Part shown: one piece after another, positions 4,993 to 64,000 of the stretch
Layout of the letters: the number at the start of each line of letters is the position of its first letter
How positions within the stretch are numbered: position 1 is the stretch's first letter
Sequence record: MH992123.1
Strand: one strand, 5' to 3'
Source: Escherichia phage OLB145
Length of the DNA stretch: 64,000 bases
The notes under the pieces: model-generated
Seen by the model: the letters and a program-made list of their open reading frames with translations, nothing else
What the model was told of the DNA's origin: nothing
Databases searched by the model: none
Position numbers and translations under genes: made by a program

Positions 4993-6135
4993 ATGTCCAT
5001 GACAGATGCTCAATTAACCCGTGAATATGACAGATGTCAGGCTAAAGCCTTTATGGGCAAAACTGCTGCATTCTTTGGTTCACTGTTATGTTCCCTGAAG
5101 TTCCGTTGGGTAAAAGATGGCTGTGATACAGCACAAACCGATGGTGAGCATCTCGAATGGAATCCTGATTGGTTTGAAAGTCTATTACCTGAATCTCGTG
5201 TAACAGTACTTATGCATGAACTATGGCATGTTGGCTTACTGCATTCTGTTCGTATGGGTTCTCGTGACCCAGAAGTATGGAATTATGCCTGTGATATTTA
5301 TATCAACAATCAGCTTATTCAGGATGGCTACAGCTTTATAGGAATCGAAAATTGCTGGAAAGACCCTAAGTATGCTGGTTGGGCTGAAGAACAAATCTAT
5401 GATGACCTCATGAGCAAACAGATACGTCCTCCTAAAGCACATGGTGCTTTTGGGACTGGCTCAGGTGGTGACATGAAATCTTCCACTTCGAAGGCTAGTC
5501 AGGTGAATATTGTCAATAATGTAGTAAGAGCCATGCACCAACAGAAACTATCTGGTGGCTCTTTGCCTGGGGTATTACCTGGAAAAATGGAAGAAGTTAT
5601 TACTCAATTCCTGAAACCAGTAGTACCGTGGCAGGTTTTACTTGAACGCTTCTTCAATGACCTGCAAGAAACTTACTACTCATGGCAACGGCCTAATCGT
5701 AGATACCCTGATATGTACCTACCATCTCCTATGGATGATGACGGTAGACTGGAACATCTGGCTTATTTCCTCGATACATCTGGCTCCATTAAACCTAAAG
5801 ATGCTTTACGCTTTAGCTCTGAAGTGGCCTATGTAAAAGAGAAATATCAGCCTCAGAAGATGACTCTAGTTCAGTTCACTACAGAGATTGTAGACGAACA
5901 AGTCATTGAAGATGGTGATAAGTTTACTGATGTCACTATCAAAGGACGAGGTGGTACTAGTCTGGTTCCTGTACGTGAGTGGATTATTAAGCATAAGCCT
6001 ACTGCTGCCATTATCTTTACTGACTTAGAAGTCAGACCGATGGAGCCATTGCCATTTGACATTCCTGTCATATGGGTAGTTATTCGTAACCCTGGTGCAC
6101 AAGTTCCATTTGGGAAAATTATTAACATTACATGA
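4993..6135 (+). CDS. von Willebrand factor A domain protein with N-terminal HExxH metallopeptidase-like motif (N4 gp25-like)
   Basis: 'VLMHELWHVGLLH' (HExxH); MIDAS-like 'LAYFLDTSGSI'; SD GAGGAAA; adjacent to the AAA+ ATPase. Confidence 0.65.
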   Translation: MSMTDAQLTREYDRCQAKAFMGKTAAFFGSLLCSLKFRWVKDGCDTAQTDGEHLEWNPDWFESLLPESRVTVLMHELWHVGLLHSVRMGSRDPEVWNYACDIYINNQLIQDGYSFIGIENCWKDPKYAGWAEEQIYDDLMSKQIRPPKAHGAFGTGSGGDMKSSTSKASQVNIVNNVVRAMHQQKLSGGSLPGVLPGKMEEVITQFLKPVVPWQVLLERFFNDLQETYYSWQRPNRRYPDMYLPSPMDDDGRLEHLAYFLDTSGSIKPKDALRFSSEVAYVKEKYQPQKMTLVQFTTEIVDEQVIEDGDKFTDVTIKGRGGTSLVPVREWIIKHKPTAAIIFTDLEVRPMEPLPFDIPVIWVVIRNPGAQVPFGKIINIT

Positions 6136-8613: not shown

Positions 8614-8658
8614 GTAGGTCTTTTGTGGGTGTAGACCACTCATAATAAACTCCGCTAT

Positions 8659-8687
8659 TTGCCCCCTGCATGGGGGCAATTTTTTTG
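8659..8687 (+). terminator. intrinsic terminator
   Basis: Stem TTGCCCCC/GGGGGCAA (8659-8666/8672-8679), loop TGCAT, then TTTTTTT. Confidence 0.75.
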
Positions 8688-14370: not shown

Positions 14371-14749
14371 AAACATTAGTACCCAAATTGGTTGTCATCT
14401 GGAAGAAGTAGTTGAGATGCTGGAAGAATTGGCTCCAAATTCTGGAGAAGCATACGATACACTTCATAATGCCATTGCAGCTTTAACTGAATTGTCAGAA
14501 TTAATTAAAGAAAATAATGTTTATGCACCTAACAGCAATCGCTTAGCTATTCTGGATGCACTGGCAGACCAGATTGTTACAGCAACTGGCATCGGTACTT
14601 TCTTGGGTATGAACGTACCTGGAGCACTCACTGAAGTGAACCGTTCTAATTATTCAAAATTTGAAGACGGTGAGCCTGTTTTCAATGAGAATAAGAAAGT
14701 AATGAAAGGTAAGGATTACACTCCGCCTGATTTAACCCCATTCATTTAA
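14294..14749 (+). CDS. MazG-like nucleotide pyrophosphohydrolase (putative)
   Basis: ATG 14294 with AAGGAAA SD; 'HLEEVVEMLEEL' (EExxE) and 'ILDALADQIV' resemble MazG metal-binding motifs; the first 77 nt overlap the upstream ORF. Confidence 0.4.
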   Translation: MNDSSKDTLVQTQNWFLKAVPSPTSKNISTQIGCHLEEVVEMLEELAPNSGEAYDTLHNAIAALTELSELIKENNVYAPNSNRLAILDALADQIVTATGIGTFLGMNVPGALTEVNRSNYSKFEDGEPVFNENKKVMKGKDYTPPDLTPFI

Positions 14750-25512: not shown

Positions 25513-25968
25513 ATGCAAGTAATCCTGACCCAACCTGAAATCGAAGCTGCTCTGACTGGTTATGTAAACGACCTGATGTCTGTACGTGAAGGTATGGAAA
25601 TTAAAGTAACCTTCAAAGCTACTCGTGGTGATGATGGTGCTACTGCAATCGTAGATATTGTCCCTGCTGGTTCCCAATCTGTTGAAGTGGTCGAGGAACC
25701 AAAGAAAGAGTCAAAGGAACGCAAGCATCGTCCAGTAACCCAGACCAATACTGCTGCTGTCAGTGCTCTGGCTTCTGCTACTGGTAAGAAAAAAGAAGAA
25801 GTAGTTGAAGTAGAAACTACTACTGAAACTGTTGATGAAACTGTAGATGAAACTGTAGAAGTAGCTGAAGAAGCTGCTGCTCAGGAAGAAGAAAAAGAAG
25901 TACAGGAAGAAGAGGCTAAAGAACCAGTACAAGCCAAACCTTCTCTGTTTGCAGGTCTGAAACGTTAA
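25513..25968 (+). CDS. hypothetical protein with strongly acidic low-complexity C-terminal tail
   Basis: 151 aa; C-terminal 'EEVVEVETTTETVDETVDETVEVAEEAAAQEEEKEVQEEEAKE'. Confidence 0.55.
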   Translation: MQVILTQPEIEAALTGYVNDLMSVREGMEIKVTFKATRGDDGATAIVDIVPAGSQSVEVVEEPKKESKERKHRPVTQTNTAAVSALASATGKKKEEVVEVETTTETVDETVDETVEVAEEAAAQEEEKEVQEEEAKEPVQAKPSLFAGLKR

Positions 25969-26298: not shown

Positions 26299-26373
26299 GA
26301 TGGTGTAGCTCAGTGGTAGAGCAGTTGGCTGTTAACCAACTGGTCGATGGTTCGAATCCATCCACCATCGCCA
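26299..26373 (+). tRNA. tRNA-Asn (anticodon GTT)
   Basis: Perfect 7-bp acceptor stem GATGGTG/CACCATC, anticodon loop CTGTTAA, T-arm GATGG-TTCGAAT-CCATC, encoded CCA. Confidence 0.85.
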
Positions 26374-26378
26374 AATTT

Positions 26379-26468
26379 GGAAGGTTGTCAGAGAGGCCGA
26401 TTGTACCTGACTTGAAATCAGGAGGCGCAGAGATGCACCCGAAGGTTCGAATCCTTCACCTTCCACCA
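26379..26468 (+). tRNA. tRNA-Ser (anticodon TGA), class II with long variable arm
   Basis: Acceptor GGAAGGT/ACCTTCC, anticodon stem CCTGA/TCAGG with loop CTTGAAA, T-arm GAAGG-TTCGAAT-CCTTC, encoded CCA. Confidence 0.8.
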
Positions 26469-26472
26469 AATT

Positions 26473-26548
26473 GCTGGTTTAGCTCAGTTGGTAGAGCAAT
26501 TGCCTTGTAAGCAATGGGTCAATGGTTCAAGTCCATTAACCAGCACCA
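26473..26548 (+). tRNA. tRNA-Thr (anticodon TGT)
   Basis: Acceptor GCTGGTT/AACCAGC, anticodon stem ATTGC/GCAAT with loop CTTGTAA, T-arm AATGG-TTCAAGT-CCATT, encoded CCA. Confidence 0.8.
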
Positions 26549-26555
26549 ATACAGG

Positions 26556-26637
26556 TTATTAGTGAACACACTATGGAACCTCCCAGCTTCCTCCAGATGT
26601 ACGGCAATACATTAGCTGGTAGTGTGTTCACTGATAG
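26556..26637 (+). repeat. long imperfect hairpin (inverted repeat)
   Basis: Perfect 13-bp stem AGTGAACACACTA (26561-26573) / TAGTGTGTTCACT (26620-26632), extended to about 18 bp with G-U pairs; inner stems CCAGCT/AGCTGG and ATGTA/TACAT. Confidence 0.7.
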
Positions 26638-26716
26638 GTTGTACTATCACAGTCCAGACAATATCTGCGTGACTTAAAAAAACAGATGGAGCCAGGTGGA
26701 ATCCCTGGCAATTAAT

Positions 26717-40830: not shown

Positions 40831-40918
40831 ATTGGAGAAAGTACGAATACTATCCCCAACACCAGAGAAAGAAACTAACTAAACAATACCCAAATCTCAA
40901 TGACTCATACGATACCTC

Positions 40919-60464: not shown

Positions 60465-61427
60465 TCACACAATATATGAAGAGAGTGGGTTAACACTTCC
60501 AGTATCATCACCATCATCCCACAATGGGTCACCTGATGTATTAACTGGAACCATACCTGCTTGTGGTTTCCACGGGTTCAGGTAGCCAAGCATTGAAATG
60601 GTATCAATACAGTCATCCTTACCTTTAAGACCATTGATAGTGGCTAAACGAATTTGCCCCATAAAGAGTGTCATGATTGGGCTATCTTTCATTTCAGCAG
60701 GAAAATACATCTTACCAGCTTTGAACCAGGGAACCACGAGGTTAAACCTCGATAGCTTACTGGTTACAGGATGAATACCCGGTTGGCCCCCACGACTGGA
60801 TGCAAAGTTAAAGAACACATTACGGTTAAGCATTTCCTTCTGAAGAAGAGAAATAAAACCACCTTGCTGTCCAGTAGTTTCTACACCAACTTGTTGTGGT
60901 TGGTATTCCTGAACCAGACGGAATAAGTCATCAAAGTTCTTATCCATAGTTTGACGGCAAGCAATACCATCTACCCAGAACCAGTCACCATTAGAACCAT
61001 ATGCCCATACTGATATTACAGAGTAGTCAGATACCTGCTTCTCACTGGTAGCAAAGTCAGTGGTGATATAGAAGTTATAACAAGAACGGAGACGTAATAG
61101 CTGCGTGCGGGAATACCATTTAATCTCTGAATCTTGAATCAGACGTTCATCTTCAGAACTGATACGTAACATCAATTCCTGATAAAAGGATGCCAGCTTA
61201 CCTGTCTTCAATGCCATCTGGTATTGGTCATTGATGTAGTCATAGGAGAAACGGTCTTCCCAAGCACCTTGAAATTCTTCTCGCGTACATGGGAATTTCT
61301 CACATACAGGCCATACGTTGACATCCCAAGCACCAGATTCAACTGCTTCAATAAGAATATCTTCCTTATTAAAGGGAGTACCATTAAAGATTACCTTACG
61401 TCTTGTTGGGTCAAGAGCATGGTTCAC
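60465..61427 (-). CDS. terminase large subunit, C-terminal (nuclease) portion, frame-disrupted relative to the ATPase portion
   Basis: Track ORF starts at GTG 61427; this frame is open upstream to a stop at 61479-61481; contains 'VIFNGTPF' (ATPase coupling motif) and an acidic nuclease-like region. Confidence 0.6.
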   Translation of the reverse strand: MNHALDPTRRKVIFNGTPFNKEDILIEAVESGAWDVNVWPVCEKFPCTREEFQGAWEDRFSYDYINDQYQMALKTGKLASFYQELMLRISSEDERLIQDSEIKWYSRTQLLRLRSCYNFYITTDFATSEKQVSDYSVISVWAYGSNGDWFWVDGIACRQTMDKNFDDLFRLVQEYQPQQVGVETTGQQGGFISLLQKEMLNRNVFFNFASSRGGQPGIHPVTSKLSRFNLVVPWFKAGKMYFPAEMKDSPIMTLFMGQIRLATINGLKGKDDCIDTISMLGYLNPWKPQAGMVPVNTSGDPLWDDGDDTGSVNPLSSYIV

Positions 61428-62098
61428 ACCCTTATATACCGTGTCTTTAATGGCTTCATTGATGTACGTGAGCGAGCATCATCATCACTAACTAAGTCAT
61501 CCAGTACGCAAAGAACGGGACGTTTACCAAAAATCTTAGTACCACGAAGACCTGTCTTAGCACCAAACATCTTCACACCAAGACGGTGACCTTCAGCATT
61601 TACAAACTCAAGGTAGTTATCTGTGAAGGTAGCTTTAGGAATCCATTGTTGCAGGAATGGTGAATTGTTGTATCGAAACTCAATGTTCTTACGGGCAGAC
61701 TTAACACCGTTATCCATAGAGTCAGATACATAAATCATTCCTTCTACTTTACCCAAGCTAGGTAGATGCCCAAACACTGCTAAGAACAAAGTAAAGTATT
61801 CCATGAACAGAGTTGTCTTTGCTGCACCACGGAAACATAAGTTAGCAATGTACTGATTCTTACTGGTTATCTTATCCAGCATCTTTAAGTGAACAGGAGG
61901 GGTTTTGTTTGATTCCCCCTCCTTACCATTAACCAGCTTAATAAAGTTAGCAAAGGTCAGTGCAAATTCGGTTGGTATATACGTAGGGGTATTCAGAACG
62001 GAATAGTCCACTTGGTCTAGCCATTCATCCAACTCCTGTTTAATTAGTTCAGACATCAATAATATCCTCGTCTTCTCGAACCAGTGTGGAACCTGCAA
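61424..62098 (-). CDS. terminase large subunit, N-terminal ATPase portion
   Basis: Walker A 'CFRGAAKTT', Walker B 'VLCVLDDLVSDDD'; ends at TGA 61424-61426 in a different frame from the downstream nuclease portion. Confidence 0.6.
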   Translation of the reverse strand: MQVPHWFEKTRILLMSELIKQELDEWLDQVDYSVLNTPTYIPTEFALTFANFIKLVNGKEGESNKTPPVHLKMLDKITSKNQYIANLCFRGAAKTTLFMEYFTLFLAVFGHLPSLGKVEGMIYVSDSMDNGVKSARKNIEFRYNNSPFLQQWIPKATFTDNYLEFVNAEGHRLGVKMFGAKTGLRGTKIFGKRPVLCVLDDLVSDDDARSRTSMKPLKTRYIRV

Positions 62099-62741
62099 TT
62101 ACTTTAGTAGGTGTACCAGCTTCAATAGCTGCTTTCTGAGCTTCAGCCAACTGGGTTAGTGTGTTCTTGAGTTCAGTCAATCCAGAGTTTTCTCTCAAAT
62201 CCAGATTGATATTAGTAACAGCATCCTTCGGTTTCTGGAGGTGAGTAAGGATAGAGTTGGCAGCATCACACTGTACCTTCTCACTGGTAGCATTCTTCAT
62301 GAGCCATGCCTGATGGTTCAATGCTTCCTGAAACAAATCCTGATTAACAATCCATACTGGAATCAGTGATTGTTCCATAATGAGGTTTACTAACTTACCT
62401 CTATGGTAAGCAGATACATAAGCAGAGATGTCCTTCTCACTGGTTCCCCTTGCTACTAATTCAGCTTGTCTGTTGGGGAATGTTTTGAAGTAAGCATCTT
62501 TATTGCTATACCCCATGTGTTTGTAAGTAACATATTGAACAGCATTAAGATAATCCTGGGTCTTAAACTTCCCATCCTTCATCACCCCAGCATAAGTCAC
62601 AAAGTTATTTCTAATTTGCTCTGCTGCTGTCTGGTCTTGGGTCACATTGTTAATCATGTTTACCAGTTGGTCAGTAACACTGCTTTTAAACTGGGGAGGC
62701 AATGCAGAAACAATGTCTTTCTTAGTCAGTAGTGTGCTCAT
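62049..62741 (-). CDS. putative terminase small subunit (N4 gp69-like by position)
   Basis: 230 aa, first gene of the - strand late cluster, AGGAAG SD, 3' end overlaps the terminase ATPase gene. Confidence 0.4.
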   Translation of the reverse strand: MSTLLTKKDIVSALPPQFKSSVTDQLVNMINNVTQDQTAAEQIRNNFVTYAGVMKDGKFKTQDYLNAVQYVTYKHMGYSNKDAYFKTFPNRQAELVARGTSEKDISAYVSAYHRGKLVNLIMEQSLIPVWIVNQDLFQEALNHQAWLMKNATSEKVQCDAANSILTHLQKPKDAVTNINLDLRENSGLTELKNTLTQLAEAQKAAIEAGTPTKVIAGSTLVREDEDIIDV

Positions 62742-63786: not shown

Positions 63787-64000
63787 GGAAAGCTATGTGG
63801 TATATAACAGTTAAAGGTTTATCCGAACCAGTGATGATAGATAGCCTGGCCTTCGTAGAAGTAGGTCATCCTATTCTTATAGAAGGTAAGTTGTATGAAG
63901 TTGTTAGTATTTATAAGAGATAAATAGGAAGTCTATTAGATAGATACCCTATAATTTTTTCTTAGTGAAAATAGTCATAGTTACTTATGAGTTTAGTATT

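Follow-up and report, generated by a model that had tools for sequence, protein, structure and literature searches.

A one-base deletion interrupts the large terminase gene in the Escherichia phage OLB145 sequence and probably reflects an error in the record

In the sequence record of Escherichia phage OLB145 (MH992123.1), the terminase large subunit appears as two open reading frames rather than one, which raises the question of whether this phage truly makes its packaging motor from two polypeptides or whether one gene has been broken, in the phage or in the record. We analysed a 64,000-nucleotide stretch of this record, hereafter the window. The upstream ORF (61424-62098, minus strand) begins at a TTG, encodes 224 aa and ends in ...DDDARSRTSMKPLKTRYIRV, with its TGA at 61424-61426. 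The downstream ORF (60465-61427, minus strand) encodes 320 aa from a GTG start and lies in the -1 frame relative to the upstream ORF. A first-pass annotation, made from the sequence alone, had described these as two parts of one terminase on the same strand in different frames, and our translation of the region bore out both this arrangement and the further observation that the downstream frame is open upstream to 61478, where it translates as CSLTYINEAIKDTVYKGVNHALDPTRRKVIFNGTPF.

Searches with a 2-kb region around the break retrieved matches in 97 phage records, the best being vB_EcoP_3HA13 (99.7%), VEc25 (99.3%), and N4 (98.2%), all of them Enquatrovirus N4. The full window is 99.5-99.6% identical to positions 6174-70142 of 3HA13, and it is therefore the right-hand 64 kb of an N4-species (Enquatrovirus) genome. 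Window position 64000 pairs with the final base (70142) of the 3HA13 record, so the window reaches what is annotated in this phage type as the right end of the genome.

The annotated terminase large subunit CDS of 3HA13, N4 (gp68), and VEc25 is a single frame of 1593 nt and 530 aa that begins at an ATG equivalent to window position 62056. The two ORFs of the window correspond to residues 1-200 and 201-530 of this protein; since both match one annotated terminase, their juxtaposition is not due to chance, and the proposal that they are one large subunit stands. Homology places the true start of the gene at the ATG at 62056 and not at the TTG at 62098 with which the upstream ORF had been called. 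The gene and its parts are laid out as follows.

60465-62056, minus strand: terminase large subunit gene (N4 gp68 homologue), placed by the mapped CDSs of 3HA13, N4, and VEc25
62049-62741, minus strand: intact gp69 homologue of 230 aa, annotated as the terminase small subunit in some relatives
61457-62056, minus strand: codons 1-200 (MSELIK...RSRTSM), genuine N-terminal protein still in the original frame, from translation and relatives
61424-61456, minus strand: out-of-frame tail KPLKTRYIRV and the premature TGA (61424-61426), from translation
60465-61454, minus strand: codons 202-530 and the stop in the -1 frame, with the remainder of the ATPase followed by the RNase-H-like nuclease domain
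61425-61427, minus strand: GTG that opens the downstream ORF, overlapping the premature stop (GTGA)

The gene is 1592 nt long in the window and 1593 nt long in all relatives. The 3' end of the gp69 homologue overlaps the start of the large subunit gene by 8 nt, and the order gp69, gp68, and then the 30-kDa and 60-kDa virion proteins is common to the window, N4, and 3HA13. With the frame repaired as described below, the protein matches PHROG 38, "terminase large subunit", over residues 35-516 (E = 6e-106). The locus is the known N4 gp68 large terminase gene, and as a gene it adds nothing new. Two details of the first-pass reading of the junction held in part: the end of the upstream ORF had been called out of frame, which is true of KPLKTRYIRV (61456-61427) only, RSRTSM still being genuine protein, and the upstream portion of the second frame had been read as continuing protein, which is true from EAIKD... 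onward but not of CSLTYIN, which is out of frame.

Alignment of the junction to 3HA13, N4, and VEc25 revealed a single gap within nearly identical flanks, the relatives reading ACATCAATGGAAGCC and the window ACATCAATGAAGCC. Where the relatives have ATGGAAG the window has ATGAAG (on the plus strand, TTCCAT has become TTCAT), and both the DNA alignment and the listing of indels relative to 3HA13 place the lesion at the same point.

61456-61457, minus strand: missing G, one of a GG pair, between 61457 and 61456

The GG spans codons Met200-Glu201, and without one of its bases the frame shifts by -1 after codon 200 and reaches a stop 10 codons on. It had been predicted that a single-base indel somewhere within 61427-61481 would restore one terminase of about 540 aa. 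Inserting one G at 61456/61457 does restore an ORF, identical in product to N4 gp68, and its length is 530 aa. In amino-acid sequence the repaired product equals both the 3HA13 and the N4 protein (100% identity to QDF14965.1 and ABK54429.1), whereas the window as given, lacking one G at codon 201, yields pieces of 210 and 320 aa. Every nucleotide difference between the repaired gene and these two relatives is synonymous: 4 of 4 relative to 3HA13, and 31 of 31 relative to N4, of which 23 lie downstream of the lesion. This synonymous-only pattern indicates that the downstream frame was under full purifying selection until essentially now, and as such the deletion must be either extremely recent or not real.

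To place the break in the protein, we used a family alignment of 34 sequences from a homologue search and an AlphaFold2 model of the intact protein built on that alignment (mean pLDDT 73, pTM 0.47, which makes the domain limits approximate). The elements relevant to the break are the following.

61811-61831, minus strand: RGAAKTT (residues 76-82), the presumed Walker A motif or P-loop, on strand 69-73 and helix 78-95 of the model
61496-61516, minus strand: VLCVLDD (residues 181-187), the presumed Walker B strand, on strand 182-186 of the model
61416-61451, minus strand: invariant block IKDTVYKGVNHA (residues 203-214), from the 34-sequence alignment
61374-61388, minus strand: FNGTP (residues 224-228), the presumed equivalent of the coupling motif (C-motif), on strand 221-226 of the model
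61050-61067, minus strand: ITTDFA (residues 331-336), the first nuclease strand with its conserved Asp, on strand 328-334 of the model

We take RGAAKTT to be the Walker A motif known from terminase ATPases, the name Walker B for VLCVLDD is likewise presumed, and FNGTP is presumably the coupling motif by likeness to the "TTT/STP" motif of T4 gp17-type enzymes. Invariant columns in the 34-sequence alignment include R76, G77, A78, K80, and T81 in the first of these; L185, D186, and D187 in the second; M200 and all of I203-A214; the residues of FNGTP; and T332, T333, D334, and A336 in the nuclease strand. Walker B lies 13 codons upstream of the break and FNGTP downstream of it, and after Walker B the model continues with helix 197-214, strand 221-226 (VIFNGT), and strand 245-248. 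The break at residue 200 is therefore located by the model inside the ATPase core, past Walker B but before the FNGTP strand and at no domain boundary, and the labels "ATPase half" and "nuclease half" given earlier to the two ORFs do not fit. The out-of-frame tail KPLKTRYIRV stands in for residues 201-210 (residues 203-210 of the invariant block), and a restart at the GTG, which is codon V211, would skip residues 201-210 as well. With the invariant block (M200, I203-A214) lost, the truncated products are presumably inactive, and both fragments should be non-functional.

Apart from the interruption, the protein has the features of a large terminase. Walker A, Walker B, and the coupling motif sit on the model elements expected of an N-terminal ASCE ATPase, and Foldseek searches with the model support a C-terminal RNase-H-like nuclease. 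Full-length terminase matches ranged from E = 3e-16 (PhiV-1, 8dgc_E) to 1e-9, and matches to isolated domains included the ATPase of P74-26 TerL and the nucleases of HCMV UL89, HSV pUL15, G20c, and RB49 gp17. The solved terminases of PhiV-1 (8dgc_E), T4 (gp17, 3cpe), HK97 (6z6d), and Sf6 (gp2, 4idh) share the arrangement of an N-terminal ASCE ATPase and a C-terminal RNase-H-like nuclease with the intact protein, with sequence identities of just 8-15%. A PDB sequence search returned nothing significant, and Pfam searches with both halves and the whole protein gave no match above the gathering score, the C-terminal part matching Terminase_6C weakly and under that score (E = 0.0022). What the window's gene does not have is one uninterrupted ORF, its 1592 nt carrying a -1 shift after codon 200. 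The interrupted ORF is a defect of the window's copy or of the record, not of the terminase family.

The family itself is encoded almost uniformly in one piece. A tblastn search with the intact protein found 479 phage records. In 474 of these a single place accounts for 80% or more of the protein, and each of 60 rows taken from along the whole ranking was one piece; N4-like terminases are thus contiguous, and the natural two-polypeptide arrangement that would have undone the first-pass reading was not found among them. The best 120 of 6369 homologues from a large protein collection are 518-543 aa long, bar three of 873-875 aa.

These three long homologues (P0031, P0036, and P0047) point to another kind of interruption. 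P0031 and P0036 carry a precomputed intein-type homing-endonuclease domain (PF14528), and the stretch inserted in P0031, about 340 aa long, comes after residue 167 (GAK|TGLRG), which puts it upstream of Walker B and not at residue 200. In Vibrio phage 1.238.A, a "hint domain protein" is annotated at the terminase locus (MG592603.1, 4325-5536). Inteins and the like are natural interruptions of the terminase family, located elsewhere than the break in the window. An intein or intron in the window was ruled out, as no inserted sequence separates the two halves, which meet directly but for the one lost base.

We then asked whether the deletion occurs in any other sequence. In all 14 close GenBank relatives, judged by match length, the region spans 2002 nt as opposed to the 2001 nt of the query, and three of the 14 were aligned base by base. 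The intact allele ATGGAAG is carried by 16 of 16 related loci. These include three isolates as well as 12 public viral or metagenome contigs in which the allele was read directly, namely the N4 copy in IMG/VR, metagenome contig OGXX01009825, and 10 ENA/Logan contigs. The 10 were drawn from the 15 or more ENA/Logan contigs that encode P0001, the cluster representative of the intact protein (I139V). When the last 12 kb of the window was compared with the related loci, over up to its full 12 kb, the terminase deletion was the sole gap in every case except L009, whose alignment has one gap more. The deletion allele had no exact match in a viral contig collection, searched with the window's exact 32-nt version, and none among metagenome contigs, searched with two nearby polymorphic sites left degenerate; the intact allele is present in both. 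The products of the two halves had no exact match among called genes on record, and complete E. coli genomes and PLSDB plasmids yielded no match whatever. The deletion is a singleton, missing from all relatives examined.

The remainder of the window gives a picture of the quality of the sequence. Of the 55 annotated 3HA13 genes within the window, 54 have full-length intact counterparts and the terminase alone is broken; its deletion is the only frame-breaking change in the window. The other 17 gap positions are in-frame, compensated within a few bases, or intergenic, the in-frame gaps comprising one 24-nt insertion and two 3-nt insertions. We checked two homopolymer-length differences, an A6/A7 run at 26676 and a C-run at 8662, and found both to be common to N4 or to most relatives; they are real polymorphisms, and the terminase deletion is the sole indel found that is not shared by any relative. 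A generally error-prone assembly is not supported, as there is no second broken gene and both of the checked indels are shared polymorphisms.

The comparison to 3HA13 also brought out several local differences unrelated to the terminase. The 24-nt in-frame insertion (25834-25857) lies in the homologue of AC3HA13_470 and consists of two additional copies of a 12-mer resembling GATGAAACTGTA. A short, strongly divergent patch at 14429-14564 falls in the homologue of AC3HA13_360, which has 75% protein identity while its neighbours have 99-100%, and suggests local recombination or a mosaic segment. At 40870-40905, the start of a minus-strand gene, roughly the first 12 codons in the homologue of the 644-aa AC3HA13_510 cannot be aligned with 3HA13 and several small indels sum to zero, which would make this a homologue with a replaced N-terminus. 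In the homologue of AC3HA13_260, a -1 and a +1 indel lying 3 nt from each other (5440-5442) compensate, so that one or two residues change and the frame is kept. A terminator-like GC-rich hairpin at 27420-27460, followed by a T run (GAAGCCTCC..GGAGGCTTTTTT), has the same stem as in 3HA13 and a loop that differs from 3HA13 by compensating indels. The intergenic CCCCC-TGCAT-GGGGG hairpin at 8650-8680, annotated as a terminator in some records, has a C-run of C5 in the window and C7 in 3HA13; the window shares its run length with most other relatives, and 3HA13 is the outlier. Lastly, a tRNA cluster at 26299-26978 comprises Asn(gtt), Ser(tga), Thr(tgt), and Pro(tgg), and the spacer between the Thr and Pro genes, which contains the A6/A7 polymorphism at 26676 shared with N4, is annotated as "tRNA-Undet" in some records.

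Could the phage still make a working terminase from the sequence as given? One route would be a real deletion that ribosomes correct by slipping -1, and the overlap of the two frames offers one place for this.

61445-61448, minus strand: A_AAG tetramer (in CCA UUA AAG), the sole -1-slippery element in the overlap, from a manual codon scan

A slip there would correct the frame and give a terminase of wild-type length, 530 aa, reading ...TSMKPLKDTVYKG... with the junction peptide TSMKPLKDTVYK and, as computed, the three substitutions E201K, A202P, and I203L. The needed shift is indeed -1, A_AA.G is the tetramer most prone to shift in E. coli (PMC4066793), and "savior" frameshifting that corrects indels has been described (PMC5009743). 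Against this, I203, which the slip would change, is invariant in the family, and the drive would be weak: unstimulated tetramers in E. coli slip at a rate of about 0.15%, over a background of 0.11%, and frequencies of 0.26-5.6% are reached only with a strong pseudoknot (PMC4066793). A stimulator would be an SD-like element about 10 nt upstream, or a stable hairpin or pseudoknot 5-9 nt downstream, and none is well placed here: no GGAG or AGGA precedes A_AAG, RNA folding around the site gives nothing out of the ordinary (z = -1.78) with A_AAG itself paired, and the one solid hairpin lies too far off, beginning about 21 nt downstream. The overlap at 61478-61427 contains no X_XXY_YYZ heptamer in a zero-frame codon scan, and the flanks are identical in relatives that need no shift, so nothing has been selected for recoding. 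The arrangement resembles dnaX, IS3/IS911, and the tail-chaperone G/GT sites in having two overlapping same-strand frames in a -1 relation, here with A_AAG in the overlap, but unlike those systems it lacks a heptamer and a suitably spaced stimulator and is not conserved, the relatives all being single-frame. A programmed -1 frameshift was rejected on these three counts, and transcriptional slippage because inspection showed no A/T run in the overlap longer than AAA; the literature was also searched for Enquatrovirus terminases that are split or frameshifted, with no relevant result. The other route would be a terminase that works as two polypeptides, the 210-aa N-terminal piece and a 320-aa piece re-initiated at the GTG. 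The GTGA overlap of stop and start (61427-61424) does resemble translational coupling, yet the purine-rich AAGGG directly 5' of the GTG is almost without spacing from it, and invariant residues within 201-210 would be absent from both pieces. The cut also passes through the ATPase fold at helix 197-214 and parts the Walker A and B strands from strands 221-226 and 245-248, while the nuclease domain begins only at about residues 310-330 of the model; a functional split at a domain boundary was rejected on the model together with the map of invariant columns, and the contiguity of the family noted above leaves no split relative. We regard recoding and a functional split as very unlikely, slippage at A_AAG having only a very slim chance of being correct and the two-polypeptide terminase being scarcely credible at all. 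Of the three causes proposed in the first-pass annotation, translational frameshifting is thus the one argued against, and a sequence error or a recent inactivating mutation both fit.

Between these two, the choice rests largely on what the gene does. Packaging cannot proceed without the terminase. A real deletion would mean that the sequenced genome had lost terminase function by mutation very recently, for instance as a defective variant that rose to high frequency in the sample because wild-type co-infecting phage packaged it in trans, or as a dead-end genome picked up when environmental DNA was assembled. The given sequence does carry the deletion, the synonymous-only pattern fits a mutation only generations old as well as it fits an artefact, and two observations count against an error in the record: the site is a GG dinucleotide only, which is no classical hotspot and not the long homopolymer where indel errors concentrate, and the rest of the 64 kb is clean, with no evident error-prone technology. 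Nevertheless, every packaged genome needs a terminase, and a null allele would therefore not be expected to make up most of a lysate. This allele is missing from all other isolates and metagenome contigs examined, and apart from the deletion the protein is 100% conserved across the species. We therefore consider a real mutation unlikely, though it deserves to be taken seriously. A sequence or consensus error in the record is the probable cause, favoured by the essential packaging role of the gene and the perfect conservation of everything else in it; as a packaging-null genome cannot be the majority in a propagating phage, we infer an artefact and not a true mutation. A polished assembly can be expected to retain errors at about this rate, one leftover indel per 64 kb. 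Under such an error, a base-calling, consensus, or polishing step would have dropped one base of the two-base G run, the "split" would have no biological existence, and the phage itself would carry an intact single-polypeptide terminase combining an N-terminal packaging ATPase with a C-terminal RNase-H-like nuclease.

The main value of this finding is in quality control, in that the record needs either a correction or a note that the gene is frameshifted. If left uncorrected, the fragments may enter protein databases as "short terminases", and terminase-based phylogeny and packaging-type calls would miss or mishandle the gene. Should the deletion prove real, OLB145 would represent a terminase-null N4 variant, maintained either as a defective genome packaged in trans or through translational rescue. 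If slippage at the unstimulated A_AAG were that rescue, it would be a natural case of "savior" frameshifting that supplies catalytic amounts of terminase and thereby saves an essential phage gene.
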